From Paecilomyces variotii (Eukaryota): a stretch of 43,800 bases of DNA. A program made the position numbers and the translations under genes. The stretch lies in assembly GCA_004022145.1 (NCBI GenBank), contig RCNU01000033.1; one strand, 5' to 3'. The notes beneath the pieces were generated by a model. The model ran no database searches and was not told the DNA's origin. It saw only the letters and a list, made by a program, of their open reading frames with translations. Shown one piece after another: positions 1 to 28,002 of this stretch (its first letter is position 1; every line of letters begins with the position of its first letter).

Positions 1-2600
1 CTTTAATATAAAGTATAGCTCTATTTTAACTTTTAAATAATTTTAGTTTAGTTAATTAAATATTGCTCTGCCTATAGCTATAACTCTATTTATCTAGATA
101 TTAAAAGGCCTAAATCCTTTTTAATTAGATCTTATCTTATCTCGCTCTCTATAATTAAAATAGCAGATATTATTAAGATCTATTCTTTAATTCTTTAGTA
201 TTAGCTAATATAGATTATTAATAAAGGTTACTTCTCTTTACTTAAGTATAATATCTCTTAAATCTATAATTTCTTTAGACTTATTTTTAGCAATTAGTCT
301 AGTTTTTAAAGTTATAAAGCTCTAACTTATTCTTCCCTTAGGGATAGTAGTCTCTATATTTAATATTCTTAACTTATATTTTTTAAGATATTAAACCTAT
401 AGCCTATATTTGCTATAATTATATAGCGCTAACTAGATTAAATAGATCTAGATATCTTATATAATAACCTTTTAAAAAATATTCTTAGATAAGTTTTTAA
501 GCTCTATTATTCTTTTATTCTTCTTTTTATAATAAAGGGCTGCTTTTACTTTTATAGTAATATATTATAATATCTCTTTTATTAATTTCCCTTTAAAGGA
601 TATAATCTAAAAAATCCTATTTATTTCTTAATAGTTAAAGTTTTCCCTTATTATAATATCTAATTAGATATATTAGTTCTATATCTTATTTAGGGTAAAG
701 TTTTTTTTACTTAGGTTAAAATATTTTTTATCCCTATACTTAGATTTAAGATACTCTTTAGCCCTATATAGATTATCTTAGACTTTATAATATAAGCTGC
801 TTAATATATTATTAGAAGTATCTATATCAATTAACCTAAGATCTCTAAATAATTAAACTATCCTTAATATTAAAGATTTCTTAGGGAAAAGGTTTTTAGA
901 TAAAGATTTTTTAATTTTTAATTTATTTTTATCTTCTATATTTTTAGGATTTCTTAGAATAAGACTCTTTATTCTTCTTCTTAATCTGGCTATTACTAGA
1001 TATACCTAGTATTTACTTAGCCTCTATATTATTTTTAAATTATATAGTTCTAATATTCTATATATCTTTTAAATACTTAATTTTTTTTTAATAAAGGGGT
1101 CTTCTAGGTTTACTATAGAAAAGGAGGGCTTTATATTAATTCTTAAAGCTTTGCTAGGAGGTTTTATTACTTATTTATTTTTAAAGGTTTTATTTATAAA
1201 TTATTTAGTTTTTTTAAGTAAACTTCTATAAGAATAAGTTATTATTTTAAATAATCTCTTCTTTTATTGCTTTATTACCGCCAGCTTTATATTTCTTATT
1301 ATTTTTAATACTTCTTTAGCTTCTTTTATAGATATATTCTTCCTTATATTAATTATATTAGCTAATAATTATATATAAGGCTTATAGATTAAGTTAATCT
1401 TTTTAGAATTAACCTATTATAAGACTTCTCTAACCTCCTTAGCACTTATATTTAGTTTATTTAATTAAGATTATACTTTAGTTTCTCTCTTATTTAGGCA
1501 GTAATAATCCTTAAGATTAGTATTAAATCTCTATTCTTATTAAAACTATTTCTAGTAGTTTATATTAGTATTTTAGGATTTAAGGTTATTATTACTATTT
1601 ATAAGCATTTTTAACCTTTTTTTAAGGATATTATCTTTTATACTCCTTAGTCCTATTATATTTTATATTTTTTTAATATAAATTTAGTATATAGCAGTAG
1701 GTTTAATCTTTTTTTCTCTTAAAAATTTTAATATTTTTTTACCTTTTAAATTAATAATAGCCTTTTTTATTAATATAAATATGCCGATTTTATATTTATA
1801 TCTTTTTTTTAGTTATTTCCCCTTATCTTAAGTTTTAAGCTTTTTTTCCCTTTTTAGCTTCTTAAAACTCTTAATCTTTTTTTTTTTTTTTTTCTTTTTT
1901 ATACTTTTCTTTTCTTTATCTAATATTAGATTTATTAATAAGCTCTTATCTAAATCTTTTATCTAATATTCTTCTTCTTTTCTTATAATCTCCTTTAGAA
2001 GATTATTCTCCCTTACTCTTATTTTAATCTCTTATAGCTCTTTATTAATAGGCTTTTAAAGAATTAGTCCTTCTCCGCTAAAGGCTTTTCTTAAGATATC
2101 TCTTATCTTTCTAATATTAGTTAGTTAAAGACTCTTTTTAGTTAGTATTCCTTATCTCTTAATATTATAAAGTCTATTAATTTATACTCTTACTAGATAT
2201 ATAGCCGCTATTCTTTAGTCTTTAGTATTAAAAGCTAATTCTCTTATAGCTATTAAGGTTTAATATAACTTTCTAATAATTAATAAGACTTAATTTATAA
2301 TCTCCTAGCCCTATTTCTTTATAGCTTTATAATAATTTTTATTAATATATTTATAGTTCTTTTTTACTTATATTTTTAATTCTTTTAGCTTATTAATAGC
2401 TAGTATTTTTTTCTTTCTTACTTCTTCTAATAGCTTCTATTAGTTTAAGAAATTATAAAAATTATTAGCTGCTTTATTATACTTATTTTAAAGATTTAAA
2501 ATAATTATTACTATATTACTTATAAACTAAACTTTCTCTTCTTTATTATTAGCCTTATTTATTATCTCTTTTATAAGCTTATAAATTTCACTAATTATAA
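1..2600 (-). pseudogene. Possible extra ORF relic downstream of family A integrase (unknown, K/E/R-rich)
   Basis: Strong purine bias on the minus strand and a protein-like reading over ~1860-2520. No recognisable domain; boundaries approximate. Confidence 0.4.
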
Positions 2601-3259
2601 TATATATATATATTCTAAGTTAAAGAGCTTTATTTTAATAGATAATATTTTATATTTCTAGTATGTTTTCTTCTATTTTTAATATATATCTTTATAAAGT
2701 AATTTTTTAAAATAGTTTCTAAGCAAAAAGATATACTTAAAAGATAAGATAGGGTTAAGTTTAGCTTAATTTAGTCTCTAATTACTTTTATTATAGTATT
2801 ATATAATATAAAAAATAAGGTTTTTATAATAAGGTAAGAATTCTTTATTTATTACTTATATTCTTTATCTAATATTTTTTATTTTTAGCTTTATTTATAG
2901 ACTTTTTTAAGATATTTAAGCCAATATTATATATTTTTTAGTTATCTCTCTTTTTCTTCTTTTTTAATTATTTTTAGATATTTTTAAATCCTTCCCCTCC
3001 CTAAAAAAAGACGCCTTTATCTTAAATTTATCCTCCTTCTCTTCCTATTATAGCATTCTTGCTTAATATTAAACTTATTTTATTATTAGCTTTCTGCTTC
3101 CCTTTTTCTAAGCTAATATTTTTAAAAGGAGAGTATTAGGACTATAATTATATATTCTAATCTAGATAGTATTTAATCTATATTATTATTATTATTACTT
3201 AATTGCTGATTTTCTTGCTTAAATACTATATTATTATTTATAGTTAATATTTTATTTTA

Positions 3260-6200
3260 ATTCTCTTATAAATAATAGCCTTTTAAGTAATTCCTATAAA
3301 TTAAGTCCCTAAAAAGTATACTATTTAACTCTTTAAGCTTATAGAATTCTTTTTTAAGGACTTCTTTAATTTTATATAATTTAAGCTAGCAGTATATTAG
3401 TTTTGTAAAGTAAGATATCTTAAGCTTTATATTATAAAGTAGAATAAGCTATCTTTTTATTAATTATTCTTTATAGAGCTATTTTTTATTATTAAAGATT
3501 TTTTTATTAGCTTCTTTTATATATTAAATATAAAATTAGGCCTCTTTTATATCTTAATCTTAGAGCTCTATTTATTATATATAAAGGAGTAGAAGATTTT
3601 CTATAGTCTTAATCTTATCTTATACTAAAGTCTTTTAGATAGGCACTTCTAGTTTAATTAGCAGTATAGTATTATATCTTATAATTACTCTAAATAGTAT
3701 TAAGCCTATAGAGATCTTAACTATATTCTTATTTACTTAGATTATTACTAATAGATAGTTTATCTAATTTACTTCTATTCTTTTTATAAGTTTTCTAATA
3801 CTATATATAAAAAACTTATATATAATTTTAACTACTTTATTTGCTTATAGGTTATATAGCAAGACTTTAATATAATTAATCTTATACTTCTATACTAATA
3901 TATTAATTATAGCTTTATTCTTTAGTTCTCTATTATTAATAAGAGTCTCTATTACTCCTTAATAATAAATCTAGTTTTCTTATAAGAATTTAATAATAGC
4001 TCTTAAAATAGGGCTATTAAGGGCTCTATATTTAATCTAATTAAAATTATCCTAAAGTATAATAATATAAGTTTTTCCCTTATTAAGCGGTATAATCTTA
4101 TAAATATCTAAGTATAGCTTTAATCTTTTTAGTAAAATAAATATTAATTATAAAGCTTCTTTTATATATTCTTTATCTGCTTTTTAATATTTATTATATA
4201 TCTTTACCTATCTAGCAATATACTTATATAGGCCTTTCTATTAATATTAATTAGCTACCTTTTAATAAATTACTTTATGCTTATAATATTTATACTCTTT
4301 ATAAAAAACTATGAAAATTTTTTTTTATTTTTTTTATTATCAATAACTATATAGTAAAGCTGATTTTATTATACTCTCTAAAAAAATATATTATCTTATA
4401 CTATATACTTTAGGGCCTTTTTCTTAAACTTAGTATACTATTCTTTATCTATATTATTTAATTTTATTATAGTTTATAACTATTCTATAATTAATAAAGA
4501 CTTTTTTAACCAATATAATATAGGTATTAATTAAGGGATACTATTTAATTCTATCTCTTACATATTAGTATAATAGATTATATAAAACTATAGGTCTAGG
4601 AATTCCTTTATATTATTATCTTCCGCCTCTTTTAGATCTTACTTTATTACTAGCTTCTAAGATAATCTATCTATAATTAAATTTTTTTTCCCTAATATAT
4701 AAATAATATTAAAGTTAAATAGCTAAATTTAAGTAATCTATTAAATAATTATTAACCTAGAGAAGTTTATAGCTATTTTATTTAGTTATATTATTAGAGT
4801 TTTTATATCTATTTCTAGTTGAAAATATATATTATATAGATATGCTTAGAATTTGTAAAATATCTTTAATATTGCCTTATATTTTAGCTTTTCTCTATTA
4901 TATTACCTCTTTACTTATATTTATACTTTATTTTTATATTTAGCTAGGTGTCTTTTATTAGACTTCTTTTTTTTTTAAGTAAGTTAAGCCCCCTATTTAT
5001 TATTATTAGCATTAGTATTAATAATAATTATATCTCCCTTTTTATAATTAATTAGCTTAAGTACTGGTATTATTATTAGGGCTATTTTTAAAGTATCTAT
5101 TACTTCTTATTATTTTAGCCTTTAAAAAAAGCCTTATTTTTTCTTTAGTATTAAATATATTAGCTTAGCTTTAATAATATATTCTTTAATCTATATCTAG
5201 TAATAGGCTATAATCCCTAAAAATTTTCTTACCTTCTATAAGTTTTAATAAGATAGCTATTTTAAGATTTTAATTACCTTAGCTAATTTAAGATATCTTC
5301 TCTTAGTATTATATATATAGCCTATTACTTTAATTCTTAGTATTATAAATTATAATTTCTTCTTAGTAATTATTAAACCTATAAATTTAAGATTATATAG
5401 TATCTTATTAATATTCTAGATATATTTAAATATAAACCTTCTAATTTCTAATAGTATCTCTTCCTTCTTATAGTTAGTCTTAGGTCCTTATATTAGTATA
5501 TTATCTAAAAATATATTATAGATATTAGAAATATTATCTGCTAGTGCTTTTATAACTTCTTATATAAATTTCTATATTATATTTATTTATCCTTAAGATA
5601 ATCTAGCTTAATAAATTAAACTAATCCCTAGTATATAGAAAGCTGTTAAGTCCTACAATTCCTTAGCTAACTCTAACTAATTATACTTAGAGAATAAGTT
5701 TATAAGTATTAATACTAGTATTTTACTAAACTCTTCTAAGAACTTATTAGCTAAAGGGGGTAGATTAGTATTTTATATTATTACTTAATTAACTTTTATA
5801 GCTATATTAATTAGCTAATATTTATTATTTTTTTTTTATTAGGAACTATAGATTTTAGTAGAGTCTTTAACTATATTTAAGGATCCCTATATTTATCCTT
5901 TTTTTTATTATTCCTTATATTATATTATAGAGTGCTTTTAGTATTAGAAAGCTTTTTGCCTGCTATAATTTATAATTTATAGTCTAAATAATAATTAGAG
6001 ATATAATTTTTAAGTATATTTATCTAATCTCTTTAAAAATTTAGGTAAAGATTGCTTTTTAAGCAAAAAGCACCTCTATTAATAGTTCTTTCTTTTTTAG
6101 CTATAAATTATTATCTATAATAAGATTTTTTAGATAATCTAGTATTAATCTTATTTTTTTCTTAATATCTAATATCTTTAGCTAGATATATTTAACAAAT

Positions 6201-7050
6201 CCTTTATATATTTTTTTTATGCTTCTTTAGGGGTTTTTATAATAATACTCTTTAATAACTTCTTTTTATTTTAATAACTCTCCTAAAGCTATTATAAGTT
6301 TATTTAATATATTTATTAGATAAACCTTTTTATATTTCTTTTTATACTATATATTAATAGAATATTTTATTTTTATAATAAAAAGGTTATACCTTTTAGA
6401 CAGTTTATACCCCTATAATCTTCTGACTTTTTTGTTTAATTTAGTAAGTTTAAATATCTCTATCCCTTTATTTTCAATTTCCTTACTTGCTCTAAAGCTA
6501 ATATTATTTATTAAATATAGCTCCTATAGGCCTTTTTTATTCCCAGTCTAATATCTATTATTCTTTTCTAGCTCTAGTTTAATAACTCTTATACCTAGGA
6601 TAATAGATTATGCAATATCTTTTCCCTTAACTTATTTTTTAGATTATTTATTAAAAATACCTGAATAATAGCTTAATTCTTTTAGTTTATAAAATAAATT
6701 ATATTCTTTATTATCCTATCTAATAGAGCAATATACTATAGATATGCTTAATATTTAAAAGGCTGTCCTAGAATATAATTATAGTTAATCTTATTATTTA
6801 CTATAAAAAAAGAGATTTTATAATAAAAAGATCCTATTTATATAAGTATTTTTTTATAGAGACTTATAAAAGGGGTTTGCCCGCTATCTACTAATATTAT
6901 ATTATTTCTAAATTTTTAGCTTATAATAAGTTTATAATAATTTGCTATATCTTTATATATTATATTAATTTTAGCTCTACTATCTATTATAATATTTTAT
7001 GCTTTTTTATATCTATTAATTCTAATTAGTAACTTTAAAATTGCGGCTAT
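3260..7050 (-). pseudogene. pol: Family A pol relic (protease, reverse transcriptase, integrase)
   Basis: De-RIPed readings: protease IDSGAEIN (6973-6984); RT DLFSGYDQ...RLPQGWTN...FLDD (5500-5511) followed by GPKT.Y..E..PGIRRFVFEH; IN AKFLWEDWICRWG and PYNPQANGVVE (~3800-4070); GPY/F-type RWLGPYKI...GSYKLEELDG (~3290-3420). Ends approximate. Confidence 0.85.
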
Positions 7051-9332
7051 ATATAGCACCTTATCTTTATTAAGAGGCTTAAATTATAAGGATATATAAG
7101 TATATTAATTCATACTGTTTATTATATATTTTATATTTAATATAGAGGCATTAAACTATACTCCTTTAATATTATAAAATATCGCCTTTATTATTACCTA
7201 CTATAATTGCAAGGTAAATAAGGCCTTATATAAATTAAGAGATAGACTAATAAGGTCCTAAATTAATATCTGAACTTTAGTATTTAATATTTAATTTATA
7301 ACCCCTATTATATTAGTAATTCCTTTTAACTTATTTGCAATTTTAAATCTTTTTAACTTTTATTTTTTTTTATCTTAATAATCTTTTTATCCTTATTTTA
7401 TTTAGGCATATTCTTTATTTCTTCTTTAATTATCTTTATTTTTTTAGTTGTGCTTAAAGGCTAATAATTGCTAAATTAGTTTATCTTAATTAAAGGAAAT
7501 CTCTATTTTTATTTAATTGCTTTCTGCAGCTTTTCCTTATATAATTATTTAGTCTTACTTTACCTTTTCTTTACTTTTTAGGGCTTATCTAATCTTATTA
7601 TATTAATAAAGTAATAATTTTTTATAATATCCCTAGCTTTTTCTTTAGAGCTTAAGTTATCTCTAGGCTGTCTTAGTATAATTAACTAGATATTATACCT
7701 AATTAAGCTAATATTTTTTTACTCTTCCTTTAGTCTTTATTTAATAATTTTTTTTATAATATATTTCTTTATATAAGATAAATAACTTCTCTATTCTATC
7801 CTTCTAACTTAAAGTAAAGTTTATAATCTTCTTCTTAATAGATAAGCTTCTGATTTAAAAGGCTTTTTAAATCTAGGTAATAGGATTAAATATAATTAGG
7901 AGCCTAGTAAAAGTTATATAAGTTTAAAGATATTTTAAATCTTCTAGTCAGATTAAATCCTAAAGGCGCTTTAGCTTATATATTTATATTAGTATTAGGC
8001 ATATTACTATTAGGCCTCCCTATATACTATATATTATATAGTTTTAACTTCTTAAACTCTTTTATTAATTAATTAATCTATAACTGCTTTATTAACTTTA
8101 CTTTAATGCTTTATTGTTTAGTCCTATTCTTATTCTTATTTAAATAAATTCTATTAAGTTTAATAAGAAGTTATATATTATCTTCTTTAATTACCTTCTC
8201 CTTTATTAAAGCTATTATATCTTAATCTTTTTTTAGTTTATTATTATTAAGATAGTAAAGGGTTTTAATTATTTTTACCCTATCTATTACCTTCTTATAG
8301 AAATTAGTATATTTAATAATAGACAGAATATAATAGTCTATATTTAACTCCTAAATTATTTACTGCTTAAGCTCTTTTAAAAGTTTTTAAAGATATTAAA
8401 CTCTTTATAAATATTAGCTTAATTTATCTAAAGTTATTAGTGCTTCTAATATAGCTTAATATTCTTAGTTATACTTTTTTAGGTCCTTAGAGCTATTATA
8501 TTTTATATTTTTAAACCTTTCTAATTATTAGATATTATATTTCTTTTAATATTTATTATAATAAGTATATTTTTATTTAATTGCTTCTGCCAATTTTAAG
8601 TAGTTCTTCTTTTTATATTTAGGTTAAATATTTATCTATAATAATATTAATAGGCTATAATAGTCTGCAAACTATTTAGTTTTTTCTTTTTCTAGGAGTT
8701 AATTTGCCTTATATAGCCTTTTAAAAAGCCTTAGATAATAAGTAATATTATTCTCTTTAAAATATAATATCTTAAGATTTTTAAGCATTAGTATTTATAG
8801 AGCTAATATAATCTAGATTAATTATACTATTAATAATTCTGTATTTTTAGATACCTGAGCTGTCTATACCTTTAGACCTAGTAATATTAAGGAGCTAAGA
8901 GTCTTTTTATCTTAACTAATATTAAAAAGATTAGTGTTTTTTTCTATATTTTTTTAAAGGAATAATAATAAAGATAATAATAAGAAATTCTTCTACTTTT
9001 TAATAAATAGTTCTTACTTAGTAATTTCTTATTCCTTTTAATTTTCTAATTCTCTTTTATACTTATTAAGCTCTTCCTTATATTTAATAGTTTTTTTTTT
9101 CTCTTATTATTAATATATATTTTTGCTTTATATTATATTTACTGTCTCTGCTAATTTAAGAGGTATATTTATTTCTTTTTATTTATAGTAGTAATTTTCC
9201 TTAGCTATTTTACTTATCTTTTTATTACTTCTTATCTCTTTCTTTAGCTTTAGCCTTAACCTTAGCTTTTAATTCTCTTTTCTCTCTTATTTTTGCTTAA
9301 TATTTTAATACCCCCTATATTTAGCTCTAATT

Positions 9333-9658
9333 TATTATAGGAAGATATATTAAGACTTAATATAGAGTCTTTAAGTAAGTAGATATTAAGAAGGAAGAGA
9401 AAGATATTTAGTTTCAGAGCTTAGAATAGAGCTAGAGAAGAAGCTCTAGCTATAAACTAATATAGTAAACCAGTAATAATCTAATGCTAAACTAATACTG
9501 AATAATAATAGAAAGAAAAAGCTGCTTATTTTATTCTAAATAACTAAAAGGTATTATCTCCTTTCTCCTGCTTTGCTTATAAACTTTTTAAAGACTTTAA
9601 GCAAAAGCATATAACCTCTTGACTAATTATATTCTTTATACTAATTCTCCCTACTACA
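9333..9658 (-). repeat. 5' LTR of family A (326 bp)
   Basis: Plus strand reads tattatagga...ccctactaca (RIPed TG...CA). Homologous along its length to the solo LTR at 33923-34266. Confidence 0.8.
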
Positions 9659-9737
9659 ATAGATAAAGGGAATTAAGAACTATTAAAACTTTAAAATATA
9701 TTAAATAACTTTAGCCCAGAAGAAAATATAAGAAATT

Positions 9738-12700
9738 CTGCATTAAAAATAATATACTTAAATCTAACTTAAGTTAAAATTTACTTAAAAAGTCTAATTA
9801 TAATAATATAAAAGTATTTTATCCTTAAAACTTTCTATTTTTCTTTTTTTTCTTATTATTAGTAGAGTAATTATATAGGCGGTTCGGTTCGGTTTAGGGG
9901 GGGGGTTAAACCGCCTGTAGCGGTTTTCGGTTCGGGGTAAATAAACCGTACCTAAACTAAACTATATACTAGTAGTTCAGTTTAAAACTAAAAAAACCGG
10001 ATTGGCATAATTAGTTACTAACCTAAGTTAGATCCGGTTATGTAACTATGCTCTAGCTATATTAGGATAAATAAGCGAAAATTACAATACCGTAATTTAC
10101 CGGTTTCTAATATATTTTTATTATATATACTAAATACTATAGTAATTTTATACCTCTAATATAAGTATCGATAAATTACATAGTGTAATTTAAATACGAT
10201 GTTAAAATTACGGTTCAAATGGTTTAAACCAAAAACCACCGGTTCAGTTCGGTTCTGGTAGACTCGCACCGCGGTTTACTAGGAAGCGAACCAAACCGAA
10301 CCATAGGCGGTTCGGTTCGGTTCGGTTCGGTTTTTTCGGTTTACTATAACCACTCTAATTATTAGATATTTTTTAAAACCTATCTATATTAATATTAATA
10401 AGCTGAGTCTAATTAATAAATTATAAAATAATATATTTAAAATAGGTTAATAGTAGTATTTTAATCTATTATACTTAGATTACTTATTATATTAAAAAGC
10501 TAGTCTTTAGAGTTAAGATTTTTTATAAATATTATATTTTTAAATAAGCGCCTATTTAAATATAACTTAGGTTAAAATTTATATTTACTATTTACCCTTT
10601 TATTTTGCTAGGTAATCTATTATATTAATAATATAAAATAATAGATTATAAGATCTTATTAATTGCCTATTATTACTATATTAAAAATTATTTTACTTAT
10701 AAAGTTCTAACTTAAATTAGTTTAATTAAACTATAAGAACTATTATTATTATAACTTATTATCCTCCTAAAATTCTTATCTTTTAAAAATCTTAATTAAT
10801 ATTTACTTATTTTATCTTTCCTTTTTTTTATCTTTTTTTTCCCGCTAAAGCCTATTTAAATTAGTTTAAATTATTTTACTGCTCTAATTCTATTATATTA
10901 TTTATATTAAATCTATAGTCTATAATAAATTAATCTTAGATTTAATTTAAGTTAGATAAAATATACTTATCTATAAGTAAGCTCTAATAAAATCTCTTAA
11001 GATTTTTTATTTCTTATACAGTAAGTTAAGATTTATATATCTTAATTATTCTAAGTTTTCCTGCTTCTTTTTTTATTTTTTATCTTTTATTAGTTCTTTT
11101 TTAAATAAAAGTTTAATAAATAGACTTAGCTTTATTACATATATCTTTTTCTATTCTTAAATAGCTTTCTAAATAATTAGATTATAATTAATAATATATT
11201 AGGCTAGTAATTTATTAATATTGTTAATATTAAGCTCTTAATCTTATTATATAAATAAATTAGCTATCTCTTATAAAGCTCTAAGATAATTATTCTACTT
11301 CTCCTATATTAAGTTAATATCTAACTTAAGTTAAATTAATAATATATATACTTTATTTTAGATAAGATTCTTTTCCTAAAAGTTAGCTTTCCCCTAGCCT
11401 AATTTTAATATTTTAATTATGCTAGTTTTTATATATTAGTAAGTCTATAATATCTCTAATAGATTAGCCTTCTTCTTTAATTCTTTCTTATAATATCTTA
11501 AGATATAAATATTCTTAATATTATAGTTCTATTAAAATTATATTCTTATAGTTATATTTTTAAAATCTATAAAAATCTATATATAATTGCCCTATATTGT
11601 ATTAGTTTTAACTTAAATTAGTTTTTTTAAAACTTATAATCTTAATAGTATTATTAAACTTTTTTATAATACTCTTAAACTTATCTTTAATTATTTTTAA
11701 GTATTTTTATAAGACTCTTACTTAATAATAATAATTAAATTATAATAAATAAGTTTAATACTCCTTATAGCAGTCCTTATTCTCCTTAATAATATCTATA
11801 TCTTACAGTATATTTAGCAACTTATTTAGCTAAAAAGAATTAGTCTAAATTCTAACTTAAGTTAAATAAAGGCTTATATTTTATTTTAAGTCTTGCTAGC
11901 CTTAATAAGGGTCTTTATAAATCTTATTAAAAAGCATATTAATAAAGTATATAATTATATTAAGATCCTCTATAATAAGAAATAAAGTTAACTAAAGTTT
12001 ATAGGCCTACTAAAATATCTTTAAATAGTTAAATATAAGAGATAAATAATACTATTTTAATTAGTACTAAAATATTATATATTTAAATATAGCTTTTAAC
12101 AGATTAATTACTTTATTCTATAATTTAACCTATAAGTTCCTATAACTAGTTAATATTATATCTCTAATATTTAACTTAAGTTAAATCTTATTAAGAAGAG
12201 AACTTAAGGTTCTTATTCTTATATAAGTTCTTTTATATTATTATATAGTCCTTATTATTTAATATAATAAGAAATCCTAGTCTCCTTATAAGGTTCTTAA
12301 AAAAGGAAACCTTTATTATTAACTATAATAAAAATAGTTTAAAAAACTACTTTTTATTTAGAGTAAGATATAGCTTATTTCTCTTATAATTAGACCTAGA
12401 TAGGAAGAATAATATTCTTAGCATATTATTACTAGCTTAATAATAATAATTAATAATAAATTACTAATTATTTATTAAGATATAAATGCTAAACTTCTCT
12501 ATAAAGATCTTTATAGCTTATTCTTTAAATCTTTTAAACTTAGCTTTTTAAATCTAACTTAGGTTAAAATAATTAAGAACTACTAAGTAATTTTCTTAAC
12601 TTATATAGTCTAATTTTAAATTAATTATAAGCTTACTAAGAATAAAGTTATAATACACTCTCCTATATAAAGTATAAATATAGTCTAAAATCTATTATAT

Positions 12701-13470
12701 TTATAAATCCTTTTATAAGAGAGCTTAAGCATATACTATATATTTTAATAAAACATTAATAACTAGCTAAGCCTACTTTTTAAAATTATCTATATTTTTA
12801 AGTAACTTTCTCTATTATATTTAATCTTTTTATTTAAAGGCCTAAATTAAAGCTAGTATATATTCCTTATCTATATTAGATCTCTCTATCTCCTTATAAT
12901 TTAAGCATAATATAGTTAATAATTCTATATTTATCTTCTCTTTATTATAGATATTAACCGCCTATAACTAGGCCTATTAATCTATAATTAGCTAAATTTT
13001 AACTTAAATTAAAATAGAGATATATATTAAGACTTAGCTTTTAAATAGTTCTATTTTTAAGAGTTTTAGTATAAGTAATAACTGCCTAAGTCTGCTTAAG
13101 CAAAAGCTCTAATAAAATAGCTTAATAATATTACCTCACTTAAAAAATAGGTTTCTAAATAAAATCTGGCTATTTATTAAAATAAATAAATATATCTCTC
13201 TCTATTCTATTTTTAAAGCGCGCGATATTAAAAGCCTCCTTATATACCTCTATAGTATTAGCATTATCTATATTATTATTTTTAATAAAGGTCTTAATAA
13301 CCTGTTTAAAGTCGCTGTATTCTATTATTACTTTTATCTAAATGCTAATATTTTACTATTAAATAGCTACTTAAAATTCTTACTTTAAATTCTTTATATA
13401 ATCTTTATTAAGATTATAATTTTTTTTTATCTTTCTATTTGCTATCTAGATTTTATATATTAATATATAA
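9738..13470 (-). pseudogene. Multi-intron gene relic of unknown function inside the hAT arm
   Basis: Short introns with RIPed GT donors, branch-like sites and YAG acceptors: 9738-9784, 10920-10970, 11304-11351, 11592-11637, 11830-11877, 12140-12191 (weaker: 10552-10595, 12531-12583, 12982-13026). The exons between them are 333, 240 and 192 nt, all multiples of 3, and read as a helical protein. Outer limits are uncertain and there may be more than one gene. Confidence 0.65.
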
Positions 13471-15640
13471 AGTTTTAAGAAATGCCTCTTTAAGTTTTAG
13501 TTAAACTATATTCTTTTAAAAAAAAAGAAAGATTAATAAAGCTATCTCTATTAAACTCTGCTTAGCTAATTTTTTTTTTTAATAATATTATAAGAGTAAT
13601 AGACTTAAGTAGTAAACTAGTTTTAAACAGTATTTTAATTTTAATTTAGGTTAAAATATATAGTCTAGTAGGTTAAGATTATTAAAAGATTTTATACTAA
13701 GACTATTTAGCTAAAGTTTATTTATAAATAAACTAGGGTTTTTAGAGGGCGGTAAAATAGATTAAGGGTTTTAGTATTTAGTAAAATAGTCTAGAGGTTC
13801 TTATTTCTATAAATCTTATAATAGGATAGTTAAATCTGCAGTATTTTAACTTAAGTTAGAATATAGACTACTAAAATAGAGATTAAGAGCTTATTATACT
13901 AAGAGTCTTAGAAGAATTTAAATTAAGGTAATAATATCAATAAGATATTATTTTATTCTTATAGGATTTCTTTACCTGTATATAAAAAGCTAATTCTAAC
14001 TAAGTTAGAATTAATAAGAAAAATATAAAAAATATATTTAGGGAAAGAAATAAATATAATAGGAAAAAAATAAAATTAATTTATATAGTCTATAACTTAT
14101 ACTAGTCCTAATTAAGAAGTTAATATTCTAACTTAAGTTAGATTATACTAACTATCTATCTCTTAATTAACAGTAGAACTTATTATATAAAAAAAATTAT
14201 TACTCTCTTACTTTTTAGCAGAGTATACTTCTTAAGATAATAAACCTAAAGGTTTTAGCAGAAACTTTTAGTATATTCTAACTTAAGTTAGAATATAAAA
14301 TTTAGATTCTTTTCTTAAATTTCTTATATAGAGAACTCTTAATAAAAATTATTACTTCTTTCTTATTACTTTATAGAAAATAATTATTCTTCTTTTAAAA
14401 TTATTCTATTTAACTTAAGGGTATTAAAAAATTAAATTAACCTTAGATTACTAGCTTCTTAATAGCCTATAATATAGATTTAAATTTAATTATTCTTAGA
14501 GAGTTATTTATTAATCCTAAGGTTATTATATTTAAAATCGCTATATTTCTTACTTAATTTACTAAGCTTAATAATTTTAATAAGATTAATAATAATTCTT
14601 ATATTTACCCTTACTTTCTTTTTTTTCTTAATACTACTTAAAAGGTAAATTAGCAAACTTTATTGCCTAATATTAATATATAAAATATATATTTCTATTT
14701 ATAGGCTACCTAAAAAAACTACTAAAAAGTCTAGCTTACTATATTTAATATACCTATAAAAATATAGGTAGCTAATTTAATTTAGAACTAATAAATCTAG
14801 TATATTTAAGGAATTACCTTAATTGCTTCTCTAAAGCATTATAATAAAAAAAAGTATTTTTTAATTTAAGATTATAATCTACAAGACCCTAGCTAAAAAT
14901 AACTATATTAATTTCTTCTTTTAGTATAGAACTATTTCTTAAAATTAATAAGAAAAAAGACCTTAATTTTATCTTTATAATACTATATTAATAAAGCTAA
15001 ATTAGGGTAAAATAAGTATCTTTAATATATTATAAAATAGTTAAGTCTAATAGCTTAAATAGGGGATTATCTATTATAAGAGAATAATATTCGACTTAAA
15101 AACTATATCTAAATAAAAAAGAAATAGTTAAGAGTATAATATAATTTTAATAATTTTAACTTAAGTTAGATTTTTAATAAGTTATATAAGTATATAAGAT
15201 TTTCTTTAGAAGTTATAATTTATTAATTATATATAGATTTTTTATTAACTTATTAAGAGAATAATTTAGAAAGTACTTTTTATTTAAAACAGTAATAATA
15301 GTTAAATATATATTCTTTAGTTTAATAACTTAAGCTTTTAAAAAAAATTATATATTATATATAATAATACTATATTAGCATTATAGTTTATAAATATATA
15401 TATTTCTATAGCTATAACTCTATATATATATATATTTAATAATATCTTAAAAGACTTTCTTTATAGTTTTACTTTTAAATTAATATAATAATATTATATT
15501 TAAACTATTTTTTAGCTATAGATTTAAAGATCTATAACTAATAATAATATAAAATAATATAAAGCTTTAATATCTATAATACTGTAAACTATATAAATTA
15601 TTTAAACTAAACTATTTAAGTTAATTTAACTTAAGTTAGT
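9763..15640. repeat. Dispersed 16-bp palindrome TCTAACTTAAGTTAGA (variants T(C/T)TAA(C/T)(C/T)TA(A/G)(G/A)TTA(G/A)A)
   Basis: Copies start at 9763, 10561, 10706, 10941, 11320, 11607, 11851, 12170, 12553, 12998, 13640, 13845, 13995 (1-nt deletion), 14127, 14277, 15155 and 15625. Further copies at 23057, 23675 and once in each hAT MITE (~10017, ~21254, ~41513). Confidence 0.9.
9863..10357 (+). mobile_element. hAT-type MITE (495 bp), copy 1
   Basis: TIR TAGAGT(GG)TTA...TAACCACTCTA; 8-bp TSD attattag (9855-9862 / 10358-10365); subterminal (TTCGG/CCGAA)n arrays. Confidence 0.95.
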
Positions 15641-15803
15641 TTAGCACATAATCTTAGTAAATACTTTAATTTTTTCAGTTTTAAACTAAACTACTAGAAT
15701 ATAGTTCAGTTTAAGTATAGTTTTTCTGCCCTAAACTAAAAACTGCTACGGGCGGTTTAACCCCCCCTTTAAACTAAACCGAATCGCCTATATAACTACT
15801 CTA

Positions 15804-18800
15804 TTCTAGATTAAATTTATAAATAGTATAATTATCTTAAAAAAGTTATAAATAAATTAATTATAAAAGTTATTAAACCTAATAAAAGCTTATATATTAA
15901 TTATATAAATTAAGGTCTTCTATTTAATAATTATTTTTACTTTATTTAAGTTTATTTTAATATAATCTTAGCTAATAATAATACTTAGAATTTAGTCTTA
16001 GAGATAATAAACTTATATTTTTAAATCTTTATATATAAGCTTACTTTATATAATTTCTATAAGATAATATAGATATATTAAATATATTTAGAATAAGTTA
16101 TATTATATATTAAGATATTATTAAGATATATAGTATAAAAGATATTAAGATAATCTTATAGAGTATTATTAATAAATTATTAAAATATTACTAGAGCTCT
16201 TATTAGATTAAATAATATTATTAATAATTTAAATAGGCTAAGTTAAGTATAAAAGGCAATTAAATATTCTTATTTCTTCTTAATATAAAGGTTATTAAAT
16301 ATAGAAATAATATTAATCTTTATAAAATACTTTATCCTTTTTAAATTATTTAAGGTCTCTTTTATTAAAAATAAAAGATATTAATCTTTAATAGTTATTA
16401 TATCTAGAGCCTAATAGTCTATATAGATTTATATTCTTTTATTAGACTTTTTAATAGATAAGATTAAAGATATAATAAGTAAGGAATTTAAGCAGATAAA
16501 TTCTTTTCTTAGGTTTTTTTAATCTATTTTTTTAAGACCTTTAATTTATCTTAAACTATAATATATAGGGGCTTAAAGGAGAGTAATTTCTCTTTTAATA
16601 GCTTAATATTATAATTATAAAAATAATATAATAATAAGTACTTAGCCTTTTTTAAAAAAAAATATTAATATAATTCTTAAATTTCTTAAGTAATAAGTAA
16701 GTAAGATCTTTTTTTTAAATTTATTTAATCCTTAAAATAGTATTTAAGTCTTTTAAGGTAATTATAAATATTTAAATATTTTTTTAAATATAGGCAGAAT
16801 AGGCAGCTAAAGAAATAAAGGCTATATTTCTTTTCTCTAATTTTTTAAGTCTTAAAGATAAGTATTAAGGTAAAGCTTTTAAAAAAATATTATATAAAAT
16901 AAATATTTTAATTAGCTTTAAAAGCATATTATAATTTTTTTAATAATAGTTATTATTAAAAGTAATATTATAAATAATAAATTATAAGTATAAGTTATAA
17001 TATTTTAATTAGAAAAGTTTTAAAATAATAGAATAGTATACTAATTAAATAATATAAAACTTAGCATTCTTTTTAAAATAATTTTTAATTCTTATATTTA
17101 TCTAGATATAATATATAATTTTCTAATCTTTTAATTCTCTTTTATTAAATATATATAAAGTAATTAAGTCTTTTAAAAGAATAAGCTCTAACTTTTAATT
17201 CTTAGCTTATCCTTAATCTATAAATTCTTATTTTTTAGCTTTAATATTAAGTAAGGTATAAATTAATAGATAAACCTTTTTTTTCTTCCTTTTTAATATT
17301 ATAAATAATATTATTAATTTTAATTATTATAAATATTCTTTAAGGTTAATTCTATAAATAGTAGCAGTAAAAATTTAAATAATATATAATTTTTAAGCTT
17401 AGCTACAATTTAATCTAGGCTTATTTCTTTTATTAAAGATTAATTAGAAAATAAATTATATAAGTTTAAGAACTATATTACCTAAGAAGTTTAAAAGCAG
17501 AATTTATATATAATTATAATCTAAATCTTCTAGTAATTATTAAAGTATAAATAATCTTTAATATAGTATTTAAGGGAATTATAATAAAAGTAAGTATTAA
17601 TTTTATAATATAATAAGCTATATTCTTTCTTGCTTAAGCATTTAAAAATACTTAAATTTATAGGGTTATATAGTTATACTAGGGCCGGCTCCTCTCTCTA
17701 TATAGAGTTTTTTTAAGGCTAAGTATAAATTCTTACAGTAGGGATAAAGTTTAAATTAAATATAAAGAGCTAAGTATATTAAACAGGCTTTAAAATAATA
17801 TTATAAGTCTTTATAATAGAGAATTAGTTTATAATATATTAATAATAATAGTTCTTAAGATCTTATAAGAATTTAATAAACTAATAATATTTATAATTTA
17901 GAGATTAACTATATAATAATATTCTTTAAAATTCTTAATTAATAGCTTATTTAAATAGAATAAATAATATTTTTTTAAATATCTTTTCTTCTAGTACTAA
18001 ATATTAGAACTTAATAAAAAAGATTTTAAACTTTTTATTAATCTAGTAGAGATTAAATAATTTACTATATATATTATTTATATAATTAAAATTATTAAAT
18101 ATATATTTTAAGAGATCTAGAATCTCTTAATAATTATTAAAAATATAAGTTTTATTTTTAATATAGAGTAATACTTAAATATAAAATACGCCCTTTAAGT
18201 AATTAATTATATAAATTATATAACTTTAAAAGATTAAAAATTAGTCTTAATTAATTATTATCTTTTCTTAGATTTAAGCTATAAAGTACTAAAAGTCCTT
18301 TTAATTGCCTTTAAATTTATTTAGGTTTAAAAATTATTTTAAAAATCTAGGGGTAAAAAAAGTATAATAATAAATATTTTAAGTATTTCTATTAAAGTAA
18401 CTATAAGTTTCTTAATACTAAGCTTAAGTTTAAATATTAATAAAGATATATTTATAATAAATATAATTATATAATAAGCTTAATTCCTTTTAAGAATAGC
18501 CTAAATATATTATTATTTCTTTTTTTAAAGCTAAGTCTTTTAATATTACTAAATAGCCTTAAATTTAATAACTTCTTATTTAAATCTCTATTAAATAATA
18601 ATAAATTCTTATTAAAACTTTTAAAGGTATATTTTAGCTTAATAATTTATTTTATTTATAATAGTCTTAGCTTTACTAATATATTTATATATTAAATAGT
18701 AATATTTATATTATTTTAGCTTATAGCTAGCAGTAATATATTTAATAAATTTATTCAAAGTAATTAGCAGAAATAAGAAAATTAAGGTAAATATCTTTAA

Positions 18801-19137
18801 TAATATTAACTTTTAAGTAAGAAGCTATATAATATTAAGATATAGGCTTAAGAAATAAGTTAGAATAAATAGAATAAGATAATTAATACTAGGATTAGCT
18901 ATAAAATCTTTATCTAGCTAATTTAGATTAGAATAAGCTATTGCAGATAAACTTAATAAATAAGATATAGCTTAAAAAGCTTAAATCTAGATTAAGCTAT
19001 ACGCTAAAGATATCTTTTATAAGGTTATATAATTCCTTATATAATTTAGAAGAATTAGGCCTTATTCTTCTAAATTAAATAAGCATTAGCTAGTAGATTT
19101 TCTTAAGTAACTTATCTCTCGCGCTAATACTATAATA
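15804..19137 (-). mobile_element. Gypsy family B, 5' half (5' LTR, gag/PR region, RT), degenerate
   Basis: LTR at 18833-19137; RT LDIFCTAYLDDILIYS (YLDD at 16117-16128). Colinear with 26421-27238 and with the reverse complement of 39950-42972. Confidence 0.88.
18833..19137 (-). repeat. Family B LTR (305 bp)
   Basis: Same sequence and length as 22012-22316, 23714-24018, 32884-33188, 33487-33791 and 39950-40254. Confidence 0.92.
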
Positions 19138-21099
19138 CTAGTCTAGTTTTAAAGCCTTAAAAAAAGTATTTATTTAAGCCTTAATCTTAAAGCTATTTAA
19201 TTAAATCTATAAGATTATAGTTAAAACTAATTTATCTAATTATATATTAGCTAGAGTTATATCTTAATATAATAATAAAGAAATCTTATATCTTATTATA
19301 TTTTTCTTAAAAAAGCTTTTTATTATAAAATATAATTATAAGATTTATAATAAAGAATTATTAATAATTATTTACTATTTTAAAGAGTAATACTCTAAGC
19401 TTAAAGGTATATTATTACTAATTAAAATTATTATAGACTATTATAATTTAAAATACTTTATATTAATTAAGCTATTAAACTAATAATAAGCCCGCTAATT
19501 TAAGTTTTTATCTTAGTTTAACTTCTAAATTATATATTATTTAAAGAAGTAAAAAATAAAGCTTAATACTCTAACTAAAAGGTTAGAAGATCTTTTTAAA
19601 GAGACGGATAAATAGTAATAATATTAGAGTTAAATAGTTTTAAAAAAAGAACCTTAACTTATAGATTTAAAATTCTTTAAAATTAAAAATTATTATTAAA
19701 AGTTAAATAATAAGATATATTTACTTTATTAACCTAATAGCTTAAAAGATTAGAAATCTTATTAAACTTATAGAAATATCTACTTAATTTATCTTAAAAA
19801 GCTAAATTATTTAATTTAAAAAATCTACCTAGTTTATTTTATTATCTAATTAGTTTATTAAGATTATTTAATCTATTAAAGAGATAAGCTAGCTTATTAA
19901 AGAAATTATTTTACTTATTAAAAAAATAGCTTTACCTATTAAATAAAATTAGCTAAATTTCTCTATTATATTTAATAAGCTAGAGTTTTTATTTAATATT
20001 AAGAATTTACTAGATATAGCTTATTTATTTAATAACTTAATATAATTTATCCTATAAGCCCTAGATTATAAAGCTAATTATTACCTTAAGATTATATTAG
20101 CTAATTATTAATAAAAAAAAGATATTTATATTATAAAGACTATTTATATATTCTTAACTATAATAAGCTAAAAGCCTACTTATTATAAGAATATTATAAT
20201 AAGTATATATTTAAATACTTTAGAAAATATAAGCTTTATAATTTAATCTTATAAAAGTATTATTAGCTAAATATATATTAATATATAAATTATTAGACTT
20301 AAAATTACTATATTTATTATTATATTATACCTTTAAATAAAGGCTATTAAGAAGTCTTATATTAACTCTTTATCTCTAAATATTTTTAATAAGATATTTT
20401 AATAGATTTTATTATTAGACTTATACTTTATTAAGATTATAATATTATATTAATTATTATAAACTAACTTATAAAGATAAAATATTTTATACTTTATTAA
20501 GCTATTTATAATATTAAAGAAGTAATATAATTATATATCTATTATATATAGAAGCTTTATAAGTTATTAAAGATTATAATATTTAATTAAAATCTTTAGT
20601 TTATTACTACTTTTTAAAAATATTTAATTTAATACTTAAATATTATAAACTTATTATTTATTATTTATTACTCTAAGATTAATAATTAAATAAAAAAAAT
20701 AAATATTATCTTAAAATAATATTTATATACTTATATTAGCTATTTATAAGATAATTAAGTTAATTAGCTATCTTTAATTAAGTTTATATTAAACTTTTAT
20801 TATTCTAAGATTATTAAAATATTACCCTTTTTTATTAATTATAGGTTTTATTTATATATAAGATTTAAGCTTATTTAGCCTATAAATTAGCTTATTATTA
20901 AAAATACTAAAGCCTTTATTAAAAAGATATAAGATATTATAAATTATATTTATACTTAGATTTATATTATTTAAGCCTATTATAAAGAATAGACTAATTA
21001 TTATTAAATCTTAGCTTATTATTATTATATAAAATAGTTTATTTAATTAAATGCCTAGAATATTTATACTTAATATCTTTAGAAGAAGCTTAACTAAAA

Positions 21100-21594
21100 T
21101 AGAGTGGTTATATAGGCGGTTCGGTTCGGTTCAGGGGGGGGGTTAAACCGCCCGTAGCGGTTTTTGGTTCGGGGCAGATAAACTGTACCTGAACCGAACC
21201 ATATACTAGTAGTTCGGTTTAAAACTAAAAAAACCGGATTGGCATAATTAGTTACTAACCTAAGTTAGATCCGGTTATGTAACTATGCTCTAGCTATATT
21301 AGGATAAATAAGCGAAAATTACAATACCGTAATTTACCGGTTTCTAATATATTTTTATTATATATACTAAATACTATAGTAATTTTATACCTCCGATATA
21401 AGTATCGATAAATTACATAGTGTAATTTAAATACGAGGTTAAAATTACGGTTCAAATGGTTTAAACCAAAAACCACCAGTTCGGTTCGGTTCTGGTAGAC
21501 TCGCACCGCGGTTTACTAGGAAGCGAACCAAACCGAACCATGGGCGGTTCGGTTCAGTTCGGTTCGGTTTTTTCGGTTTACTGTAACCACTCTA
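21100..21594 (+). mobile_element. hAT-type MITE (495 bp), copy 2 (least mutated)
   Basis: TIR TAGAGTGGTTA / TAACCACTCTA; 8-bp TSD aactaaaa (21092-21099 / 21595-21602). Confidence 0.95.
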
Positions 21595-22011
21595 AACTAA
21601 AAAAAACTTAGCTTATTTTATATTATTAAGATTATTAGCCTATATATTTATTAGCTTAACCTATCTATTTTAATATATATTTATCTTATATTTAATATTA
21701 GTCTACTTTATCTTATTACTAAGAACTCTATACTTAAATAAAGATAGCCTTTATTATTACTTATTAAAGTTAATAGCCTTAAAGAATAAGTTATTAAAAA
21801 TATCTTAGATTTTTAATAGAAATATTATAGCTATAAAGGCCTTTAATTATAATATATTATTAAATAAATAAGTTATAATAATTTAATTAAAGAACTTATA
21901 TATTATCTATAATATACTTAAGAGATTATTATAAACTTTTATTATTACTACTTAAATAAGCTAAAATTAGAAAATAGTCTTAATAAAGCTTAATTTTAAG
22001 AAAAGAAGTAT

Positions 22012-22316
22012 TATTATAGTATTAGCGCAAGAAATAAATTACTTAAGAAGATTTACTAGCTAATACTTACTTAATTTAAAAGAATAAAGCTTAACTCTTT
22101 TAAATTATATAAAGAATTATATAATCTTATAAAAGATATTTTTAGTATATAGCTTAATTTAGATTTAAGCTTTTTAAGCTATATTTTATTTACTAAGCCT
22201 ACTTATAATAGCTTATTTTAGTTTAAATTAGCTAAATAGAGATCTTATAGCTAGTCTTAATATTAACTACTTTATTCTATTTATTCTAACTTGCTTCTTA
22301 AGCCTATATCTTAATA
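22012..22316 (+). repeat. Family B 3' LTR (305 bp)
   Basis: tattatagtattagcgc...cctatatcttaata; preceded by a PPT-like tract. Confidence 0.92.
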
Positions 22317-23300
22317 AGTACTAATTAATTAAAATTATTACTTCTTAATTACTAAATATAATAGAATTTAATATATTTTATATTTATATATACTCTTAAA
22401 CTATATATAGTAATTAAATAATTTATTATATTATAAACTAATAAAGATATTTATTTTTTAATATTATCTCTTATTAAATAATATTAGATTAAATATTTTA
22501 TTAAATTAACTTAGCTATTCTATAATTTTACTCTTATTATATTAAAGATAAATAATCTATTAATTTATAGAGTTTTTAAAATTTATAATATTATCTTTAA
22601 TTATCTTAATAACTATATAAAATACTTAAAATTAAAAAAAGTTATATAGAAGATATAACTTTAAAATACTTTATTTAAAGCTTATAATAAGTTATAAACT
22701 TATTATATTAAAATATATAAATCTTAAGAATTTATATATATAATTATAATAATTCTTTACCTTAGTTTAAAGCTTAAATATTTTAAAACTTAAATCTAAT
22801 AAAATATAATAAAAAACTAGTATAATACTTATAAAAAGATTTTTTATAAGGTATTTTAATACTATAATAATTAAAATCTAAATATTAAAATATAATTAAG
22901 AATTTATTTATTAGTCTTAATATTAGATTATATACTTATATAATTTAAATATTATTATCTCCCTTTAAATATTATTAATACTTATTAAGAAATTTAAACT
23001 TATTTTATTAAAAATAATATTCTATTTAATATTATACTTAAATTATATAGTATTATTCTAACTTAAGTTAAATTAGCTTTATTAAAATTAAATAATATCT
23101 TTAACTATTAAAAAATTAATAAATATTAATTTCTAATTCTTATAATAATAGCTTAAGATTTTCTTATAATCTTATTAAGTAATATTAGTATAGAATAATT
23201 ATTTAATAATACTTAAAATATCTACTATTATTAATATAATTAATTACTTTTTAATATAATTTATACTTTAATACTTCTTATATATATTAAAAATTTTATT
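22317..23300 (+). pseudogene. hAT transposase relic (C-terminal half, with hATC dimerisation domain)
   Basis: De-RIPed readings: TRWNST (ata taa tag aat tta ata, 22356-22373); PFYDFTL..SK....SIHRVFEIYN.IFDHL; KL.TYY.KT....VYAIATIL.P..KL.YF; YWK.NE..FP.LA.MARDFLAIPSSGVGVERLFNSARDICHYRR.RL.P.TI (~23100-23280). One intron at ~23014-23076. Confidence 0.88.
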
Positions 23301-23713
23301 ATTTAGCAAGAGTTTAAGATAATAATTAATAATATAAATATAATACTTAATTATTAATAATCTAAAAAAAAGAGATTAAATTACTAAATTTAATTAGTAA
23401 TAATAAGAATATAAATAATATATTAAAAGAAGAGATAGAGGTTAATAATAAGAACTATTAAATAAAGCAGTTTAAGAGTTAAAATCTTTTAAGTATTTAA
23501 ATAGATTAACCTATTACTAACTCTATATATAATAAAAAAGAATTAAATTAATTACTTATACTTAAAGCTTCTATATATTCTTAAAGAAATATAATAACTA
23601 TAAATAAATTTAAGTCTTTTAATTATTACTTATATTAGATTAACTATATTAAAGGCTAATATAAATATTAATAATTTAACTTAAGTTAGATTTAATTATT
23701 AAATTCTAATATT

Positions 23714-26700: not shown

Positions 26701-27238
26701 TATATTTAGAATAAATTATACTATATATTAAGATATTATTAAGGTATATAATATAAAAGATATTAAAATAGTTTTATAAAGTATTATTAATAAACTATTA
26801 AAATATTATTAAGGCTTCTATTAAACTAAATAGTATTATTAATAATTTAAATTAGCTAAGTTAAGTATAGAAAATAATTAGATATTCTTATCTCTTTTTA
26901 ATATAAAGGTTATTAAATATAGAAATAATATTAATCTTTATAAAATATCTTATTCTCTTTAAATTATTTAAAGTCTCTTTTATTAAAAGTAAAGAATATT
27001 AGTTTTTAATAATTATTATATTTAAGGCCTAGTAATCTATATAGATTTATATTCTTTTATTAAATTTTTTAATAAATAGAATTAAAGATATAGTAAGTAA
27101 AAAACTTAAGTAAAAAAATTCTTTTTTTAGATTTTTTTTAATTTATTCCTTTAAGATCTTTAATTTATCTTAAGATATAATATATAAGAGCTTAAAGAAA
27201 AGTAATTTCCCCTTTAATAATTTAATATTATAATTATA
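23714..27238 (-). mobile_element. Gypsy family B, 3' part (RT, RH, IN, chromodomain, 3' LTR 23714-24018)
   Basis: 24019-26393 is the reverse complement of 19138-22011 without the MITE. YLDD at 26735-26746. Ends at Mutator-like MITE copy 1. Confidence 0.9.
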
Positions 27239-27757: not shown

Positions 27758-28002
27758 GACTAGCTATAAGATCTCTATTTAGCTAATTTAGACTAAAATA
27801 AGCTATTATAAATAAGCTTAGTAAATAAAATATAGCTTAAAAAGCTTAAATCTAGATTAAGCTATATATTAAAGATATCTTTTATAAAGTTATATAGTTT
27901 CTTATATAATTTAAAAGAGTTAAGCTTTATTCTTTTAAATTAAGTAAGTATTAGCTAGTAAATTTTCTTAAGCGACTTATCTCTCGCGCTAATACTATAA
28001 TA
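27758..28002 (-). repeat. Truncated family B LTR
   Basis: Matches the last ~245 bp (plus-strand view) of 18833-19137; cut at the MITE boundary. Confidence 0.88.

Follow-up and report, generated by a model that had tools for sequence, protein, structure and literature searches.

A candidate dead hAT-family element carrying a duplicated gene fragment in AT-rich DNA of Paecilomyces variotii

The present work concerns a region within 43,800 nucleotides of DNA from the fungus Paecilomyces variotii (contig RCNU01000033.1 of GenBank assembly GCA_004022145.1; this whole stretch is referred to here as the window), which an earlier note, made from the sequence alone, had taken for a large hAT transposon with a passenger gene. 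We hold, with moderate confidence, that positions 9663 to 15803, minus a miniature inverted-repeat transposable element (MITE) nested within them, are what survives, 5.6 kb or more on the right-hand side, of a dead long hAT-family element that carries a duplicated gene fragment. The evidence consists of a solo hAT-type end, the nested MITE, saturation with repeat-induced point mutation (RIP), the homology of the gene fragment, and the enrichment of a palindrome. No part of the region is functional today, nor does it work as a carrier of cargo.

Results

Composition of the window and features of the region

The whole 43.8-kb window is strongly AT-rich, with a GC content of 11 to 27% per kb, and in every kb the RIP indices are high for TpA/ApT (1.2 to 1.6) and low for (CpA+TpG)/(ApC+GpT) (0.00 to 0.64). 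Within the interior of the region, the remaining C residues stand chiefly in CpT (421 of 524). Repeats were compared in RY space, in which bases are collapsed to purine or pyrimidine and which RIP transitions cannot alter; RIPed repeats were recovered there at 98 to 100% identity, compared to base identities of 67 to 96%. The features of the region are listed below, with a strand where one was assigned.

9333..9662: LTR-like (long terminal repeat) terminal repeat of a Gypsy element filling 1-9662; left cut-off of the palindrome-bearing DNA
9663..9862: leftmost retained interior piece, with a palindrome at 9765-9776
9863..10357, plus strand: nested complete MITE (M1), 495 bp, with the duplication ATTATTAG at 9855-9862 and 10358-10365
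10366..15664: RIP-saturated interior, GC 17%, (CpA+TpG)/(ApC+GpT) 0.18, single-copy within the window
13038..13325, minus strand: copy, altered by RIP, of the initial ~95 codons of an orphan P. variotii gene from the family P0001/P0008 (XP_028483058.1 and its homologues in other strains)
14400..14775: second coding-like remnant, period-3 power 5.3 in 14400-14699
15665..15803, minus strand: solo A-type hAT end with the terminal inverted repeat TAGAGTAGTTATA and subterminal CGGTT-type repeats, 139 bp homologous to the MITE
15804..15811: presumed target site TTCTAGAT, the 8 bp flanking the solo end; repeat family X from here on
9765..15638: palindrome with the core TAACTTAAGTTA, starting at 9765, 10563, 10708, 10943, 11322, 11609, 11853, 12172, and 12555, with further starts at 13000, 13642, 13847, 13997 (an 11-mer), 14129, 14279, 15157, and 15627 and one more in M1 at 10019

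A solo end of a hAT-like MITE family

Complete copies of a 495-bp MITE are present at 9863-10357 (M1), at 21100-21594 (M2), and, inverted, at 41188-41682, and all three are flanked by perfect 8-bp target-site duplications (ATTATTAG, AACTAAAA, and GCCTCTAA). Both termini begin with TAGAGTGGTTA(T/C)A, while the interior parts of the two ends differ, and the ends are here named A and B accordingly; arrays of three and five CGGTT units adjoin them. The hAT consensus comprises short terminal inverted repeats that begin with YAGRG, together with short subterminal repeats, and the 495-bp element has short terminal inverted repeats as well as short subterminal repeats, namely, the CGGTT units. Judged by the 8-bp duplications in three of three copies, the common terminal repeat, and the subterminal CGGTT repeats, we classify the family as hAT-like. 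Compared with one another, the copies have an RY identity of 0.98 to 1.00 at a base identity of 81 to 96%, the highest values being those of M1 and M2 (96% of bases, RY identity 1.00).

When the window was scanned over its full length and on both strands in RY space, four A ends were identified, at 9863, 21100, 41682, and 15803, and four B ends, at 10357, 21594, 41188, and 39637, the last of which is solo and heavily RIPed. A further match at 39818 (48/60) was regarded as a repeat-array artefact and not as an end. Scans of metagenomes for the hAT terminal repeat returned no match. The solo B end spans 131 bp (39635-39765) and faces right; it shares 67% of its bases with the MITE, at an RY identity of 1.00 across 75 bp (91% across 134 bp when gaps are allowed), and unrelated LTR-like repeats begin at 39947, within ~180 bp of it.

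The solo A end at 15665-15803 faces left. It agrees with the A ends of the three complete MITE copies in 81 to 85% of bases and, over its 139 bp, at an RY identity of 0.99, and 60 of its 60 terminal positions match in RY space, against a background of 30.2 +/- 3.9. The hAT end at 15803 that had been reported as identical in type to the MITE end is thereby confirmed. The adjoining DNA belongs to repeat family X and, when compared in RY space with the second copy of X (26421-26607; identity 0.99), matches it from exactly 15804 onward, the first base past the terminus, as would be expected of a true insertion boundary at 15803/15804. The 25 bp to the left of the corresponding site in the second X copy were found nowhere else in the window. 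Low-identity BLAST matches (66 to 70%) between 15120-15645 and 20400-25100 vanished in RY space and were treated as composition artefacts.

A palindrome scattered over the region

When cores of the palindrome with at most one mismatch were counted, 23 were found in the whole window, compared to 3.8 expected, and 16 of these fell in 9663-15803, compared to 0.60 expected (maximum of 4 in 500 simulations); 15 belong to the long element and 1 belongs to M1. Additional derivatives are a C>T/G>A form at 13642 and the 11-mer at 13997, and all variants can be derived from TAACCTAGGTTA through RIP-type changes. The information in the palindrome is limited to about 16 to 22 bp, and we give the length of the motif as 14 to 22 bp. 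In three of the three complete MITEs, the palindrome lies 156 bp inside the A terminus; the corresponding distance in the solo end is 165 bp, and no palindrome was found between 15804 and 21255. It is this shared palindrome, above all, that leads us to take the interior and the solo end as one element of the MITE's family.

The spacers between palindromes measure 130 to 880 bp. A tandem or satellite structure was discarded, there being neither a long-period repeat nor RY similarity among the spacers, and an arrangement of independent cassettes in random orientation was not supported, as strand skews shift by domain and not per palindrome. The two longest spacers are exactly those with coding-like remnants. 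The half-site has AACC/GGTT in common with the subterminal CGGTT repeats of the family, which suggests a putative dyad binding site. We take the palindrome for a probable family-specific cis-motif, and a dyad site of this kind is our guess as to its role. A literature search for the palindrome 12-mers returned only unrelated primers or operators, and for such a scatter of palindromes no precedent was found in the literature searched. We consider it improbable that the palindrome is a working cis-element, be it a dyad site for a transposase or host factor or a hairpin-prone hotspot of template switching in repair synthesis, and that the element is a modular carrier that gathers host DNA piecewise between palindromes.

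It is possible, although we rate it as clearly doubtful, that 15665-15803 is merely a 139-bp remnant of a MITE and that the 5.3 kb on its left have no relation to it, being RIPed DNA of some other old repeat or segment that holds a gene fragment and the palindrome by chance. Homology to the MITE does end at 139 bp, truncated ends occur in this DNA, as the 131-bp solo B end at 39635-39765 of similar length attests, and neither a partner end nor a partner duplication was found in the window. However, sharing only the terminal ~130 to 140 bp, together with the terminal inverted repeat and short subterminal repeats, is usual for a hAT MITE and its long parent. Moreover, the palindrome array halts at the hAT terminus and is absent over the next 5.4 kb, and all three MITEs contain the motif, its distance to their A terminus being close to that in the solo end; at one palindrome per ~350 bp, we estimate that chance would place one within ~10 bp of the MITE position in ~6% of cases.

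A RIPed fragment of an orphan P. variotii gene

The stop-masked minus-frame translation of 12138-13937 was used as a query against a library of 1.84 billion proteins in a full HMMER search (phmmer). This gave one match only, with the 139-residue protein P0001 (expectation value [E], 1.2e-11), in which query residues 206 to 300 align with residues 2 to 96 of the protein. The P0001 cluster has nine members, eight of which are hypothetical proteins named as P. variotii, including XP_028483058.1 (284 amino acids), and one of which is unnamed. By tblastn, residues 1 to 93 of P0001 align without gaps at 13325-13047 (E, 1.1e-14), with the start methionine opposite ATA. Identity extends to 34 of the 93 aligned residues, and 74 of the 93 can be explained by reversing C>T/G>A in the codon of the window, whereas a shuffled-protein control for this reversal gave 20.8 +/- 4.0 of 112. 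A RIP-aware ungapped scan of the whole window scored 161 at 13038-13325 and at most 32 elsewhere or with reversed queries. The period-3 power of the purine track, a measure that RIP leaves unaffected, is 5.8 in 13050-13349, one of two peaks within the region, and the fragment terminates 27 bp from the palindrome at 13000. Stop-masked translation combined with a full HMMER search thus recovered a gene relic that Pfam had missed.

Residues 119 to 284 of P0008 and the neighboring gene models P0010 and P0011 scored in the region no higher than reversed controls. Since the rest of the gene and the neighboring gene model are absent from the region, 13038-13325 fits a fragment of captured type, comprising the start codon and ~95 codons, rather than a syntenic locus. 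It has one of the features by which gene capture is recognized, being an element-borne copy (13325-13038) of a cellular gene with an intact relative in the species. Two peptides had been quoted in the earlier note as protein-like exons, and both are literal minus-strand translations of the DNA. One of them, EYSDF...ARF, is indeed the RIPed N terminus of an orphan P. variotii protein, and the exon interpretation holds true of 13038-13325 only.

We consider it unlikely that the region is an ordinary host locus, situated between repeats and degraded by leakage of RIP, in which the orphan gene's orthologue or paralogue resides and which is not cargo. In line with such a locus, the only homologue is an apparently single-copy P. 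variotii gene of normal GC content that is found in many strains, with about one contig per accession among the nine cluster members, the region is single-copy within the window, and RIP is active in this species, according to the text available of PMC6300479. What argues against it is that the fragment is not a locus, that RIP saturation is uniform, and that the palindrome is family specific. Homology spans only residues 1 to about 95, and the remainder of the gene and the downstream gene model stay at noise level in the same RIP-aware test that gave 161 for the first exon. RIP is equally saturated over the 5.3 kb of the interior and in the adjoining transposons, with no gradient, and a host locus would leave the palindrome array without an explanation.

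No Pfam domain is present in the P0001 family. When P0001 (at near and at longer lengths) and P0008 served as queries in word-based protein searches, only P. variotii or unnamed near-identical proteins were returned, and metagenome scans for relatives of P0001 gave no match. An AlphaFold2 model of P0001 had a mean predicted local distance difference test score of 43.7 and was too poor for a fold search. Matches in the ESM Atlas (0.92; 112 to 120 of 256 shared features) were within the range of shuffled proteins and were not used. We noticed that the orphan gene has been modeled differently across P. variotii strains, as proteins of 127, 129, 139, and 284 amino acids, such that its true structure is uncertain, and that the C-terminal part of the 284-residue model is a separate neighboring gene (P0011 and P0012) in other strains.

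Other coding content of the region

There is no open reading frame of 100 codons or more in the region; the longest encodes 90 amino acids and lies on the strand opposite to that of the gene fragment, and every frame contains about 9 to 10 stops per 80 codons. Searches of Pfam with six-frame stop-masked translations of 9659-15803, as a whole and in pieces of 300 amino acids, gave chance-level matches only (DUF2059, E of 0.06; TraL, E of 0.05). This test is nearly blind in such DNA: the 9.6 kb of the Gypsy element yielded only RT_RNaseH, with an E of 1.7e-4, and nothing was obtained from two other stretches of the window in which the period-3 signal is strong. Since the controls barely detect the Gypsy element and miss these stretches, the Pfam negative carries little weight. 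With regard to the earlier remark that the region lacks a recognizable transposase motif, it is correct that no Pfam family scores, but the test is too weak for this to be read as cargo replacing a transposase.

The second coding-like remnant, at 14400-14775, has 4 to 5 stops in two frames near 14460, compared to 16 to 19 in two others. No homologue of it was found, nor any Pfam match among the parts searched. A pentapeptide, YSDFK, is encoded both at 14504-14560 and on the minus strand at 13290-13325, where the gene fragment starts, with ~18 bases alike in RY space; the remainder is without a match, and the likeness may be due to chance or to a tiny duplication.

Exons had also been proposed at 10971-12051. 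The period-3 power there is 0.0 to 2.2, every frame has 5 to 15 stops per 80 codons, and no Pfam match was obtained for this stretch, which lay outside the query to the large protein library. The other of the two quoted peptides (LNKLLD..., about 11745-11830) likewise shows no period-3 signal, no stop-poor frame, and no Pfam match. These exons are therefore unsupported. The multi-exon passenger, or domesticated accessory gene, is not supported either, because only ~95 codons are homologous to a protein, they are ridden with stops, and the other exons are without support. No intact passenger gene of the kind carried by the ToxhAT element is present, only a fragment with stops and without an open reading frame of at least 100 codons.

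We thus regard it as very improbable that the body of a large hAT family was taken over by a long-resident multi-exon accessory gene of its own in place of the transposase. The region does offer a hAT-type end, no detectable transposase, one verified gene-derived stretch, and a second period-3 peak, and cargo-carrying hATs exist, as described in the accessible parts of PMC6737239 and PMC6710886, which bears out the earlier note on this point. On the other hand, the gene fragment measures only ~290 bp, no frame reaches 100 codons, the exons at 10971-12051 are without a signal, the homologue belongs to no Pfam family and its predicted fold is of low confidence, and the test for a transposase barely detects even the polyprotein of the adjoining Gypsy element.

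Left boundary and nested MITE

In RY-space BLAST, 9333-9636 matched 33923-34232 with a score of 126, compared to a control maximum of 34, and this LTR-like match extends by eye to about 9662, across an indel. The Gypsy element to which it belongs gave its RT_RNaseH match on the minus strand at about 4780-5100. Positions 9659-9662 are not an element end; a retrotransposon has its edge there, by which the region is cut or abutted. The complete MITE M1 is a separate insertion with a duplication of its own and is likewise not an end of the long element; once M1 and one copy of its duplication are removed, 9663-9862 joins the sequence from 10366 onward. A body of more than 6 kb had been proposed, and its right end is real; the body itself is interrupted by the nested MITE at 9863-10357, and its left limit is the edge of the Gypsy LTR. 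This LTR cuts off the left part, and the long element may have its second end beyond the window. Also considered was a degraded A end on the left, around 9600-9760. RIP-tolerant local alignment (score 31, compared to 16.3 +/- 1.6 for shuffled sequences) recovered only the neighborhood of the palindrome, the RY scan showed no end there, and the candidate was rejected.

Scans of 9600-14660 for Rfam families and tRNAs were negative. In a search of sequencing runs with 10358-15803, part of the sequence was present in 20 of the 24 runs listed, from 9 studies, and 5 of the listed runs contain at least half of its sampled words. Its shares in grain and food-fermentation metagenomes are small (0.07 to 0.18) and count as no evidence.

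Other elements in the window

Of repeat family X, the window contains at least three copies, each ~3 kb long, at 15804-19140, 26421-29400, and, inverted, about 39947-42755. The copies end in an LTR-like unit of ~300 to 600 bp that recurs five to six times in the window (families D1 to D4), and two X copies are each interrupted by a MITE. A large inverted duplication is formed by 19136-22323 and 23707-26395, with arms that are 88 to 91% complementary and a 1.4-kb spacer; M2 is inserted in one arm only and hence arrived after the duplication. Distinct from the hAT MITE is a GC-rich MITE-like element of ~529 bp with long terminal inverted repeats, present at 27230-27757, 37779-38306, and 42973-43501 (inverted), whose three copies are 98.7% identical and hardly RIPed.

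The strongest purine period-3 signals in the window were found at 38300-39650 (power up to 14.8), which adjoins the outer side of the solo B end, and at 30200-30950 (power up to 10.1). Their periodicity points to RIPed coding sequence; stop-masked six-frame translations of both stretches had no Pfam match.

Discussion

Several observations weigh against the reading of 9663-15803, without M1, as the remnant of one long hAT-family element. The alignment to the MITE did not continue significantly past 139 bp (score 50, compared to 45.7 +/- 5.4 for shuffled sequences), and, to the left of 15803, the RY scan of the whole window revealed neither another A or B end nor a copy of the expected flank. 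No match to the hAT transposase domains (DUF659, Dimer_Tnp_hAT, and the BED finger) was obtained with Pfam, in what is a nearly blind test. Nothing else in the window matches the interior in RY space with a score exceeding that of the control (34), and we infer its repetitiveness from RIP alone. Exact palindrome cores are present at 23059-23070 and 23677-23688, in the spacer of the inverted duplication and outside recognizable hAT pieces, and the palindrome is not strictly private to the hAT family. Lastly, the relation between fragment and gene may run in either direction: a host gene may have been captured, or an open reading frame of the element may survive as the gene.

The two palindromes in the spacer perhaps mark another fragment of a palindrome-bearing family. 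They also qualify the description of the palindrome as element specific, of which it stands that the motif is enriched, occurs in every MITE, and ties the interior to the family. As to the ends, it had been suggested to look for a partner terminal inverted repeat and an 8-bp duplication; within the window, 9663-15803 has neither two inverted ends nor one duplication around them, and the element is defined by one end. Unlike in the usual pair of a MITE and its long parent, neither a transposase nor a second end of the parent can be observed in the present case, and the proposed relation of parent and offspring is correspondingly conditional.

We nevertheless favor a dead long hAT-family element, and the unity of interior and end, the capture mechanism, and the order of events proposed below are inferred from the features described above. 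At 15803/15804, repeat X would have received the insertion of a long member of the MITE's hAT-type family. The hAT transposase that mobilized this element would have recognized its terminal inverted repeat of 13 bp together with its subterminal CGGTT repeats. The gene fragment was most likely captured during transposon gap repair (transduplication) and then destroyed by RIP, while an intact relative of the captured gene would have survived in the species. A Gypsy retrotransposon would later have cut the long element on its left, the MITE relative M1 would have invaded it, and RIP would have mutated it to saturation.

An element of this kind would not be without precedent, as both a histone H3-capturing hAT of Pseudocercospora and ToxhAT are already known. 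According to the available text of PMC6710886, the hAT of Pseudocercospora fijiensis is ~9.5 kb long and captured histone H3, which is now found in hundreds of copies that are all RIPed save the original. It is defined by 99 complete copies, in each of which both terminal repeats of 20 bp are present along with a duplication of 8 bp and a hAT domain (DUF659), and most copies match one exon only. Similar to that element, the one proposed here would be a large hAT in AT-rich RIPed blocks, with 8-bp duplications in its family and a duplicated piece of a cellular gene, in which the copy was ruined by CpA>TpA RIP and an intact relative of the gene persists. It differs from the P. fijiensis element in having one end, one copy, and no detectable hAT domain, in carrying part of an orphan and not of a housekeeping gene, and in belonging to a different fungal order (a Eurotiales-type host); the accessible portion of PMC6710886 describes no scatter of palindromes.

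ToxhAT, as presented in the parts of PMC6737239 available, is a 14-kb hAT-like element of wheat pathogens that carries ToxA, and it resembles the element proposed here in being large, hAT-like, and in possession of gene sequence other than that of a transposase. Unlike the dead fragment described here, for which there is no sign of transfer, the gene of ToxhAT is intact, expressed, and involved in virulence, and the element is shared between species.

The setting agrees with what has been reported for the species. The genome of P. variotii is described in PMC6300479, as far as its text was available, as consisting of two parts, with AT-rich blocks that were made by CpA-biased RIP of transposons. 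The window resembles these blocks in its RIP signature, and its one protein homologue is from P. variotii. The main text of that paper, to the extent available, names a Tf2-type retrotransposon, and the words hAT, MITE, and palindrome are absent from it.

In summary, if the long hAT-family element is real, it would add an example from a different fungal order in which a hAT duplicated part of a host gene and RIP then destroyed the copies. This would leave the known picture unchanged, and it would be of use when the AT-rich blocks in Paecilomyces-type genomes are annotated and the activity of their transposons is dated.

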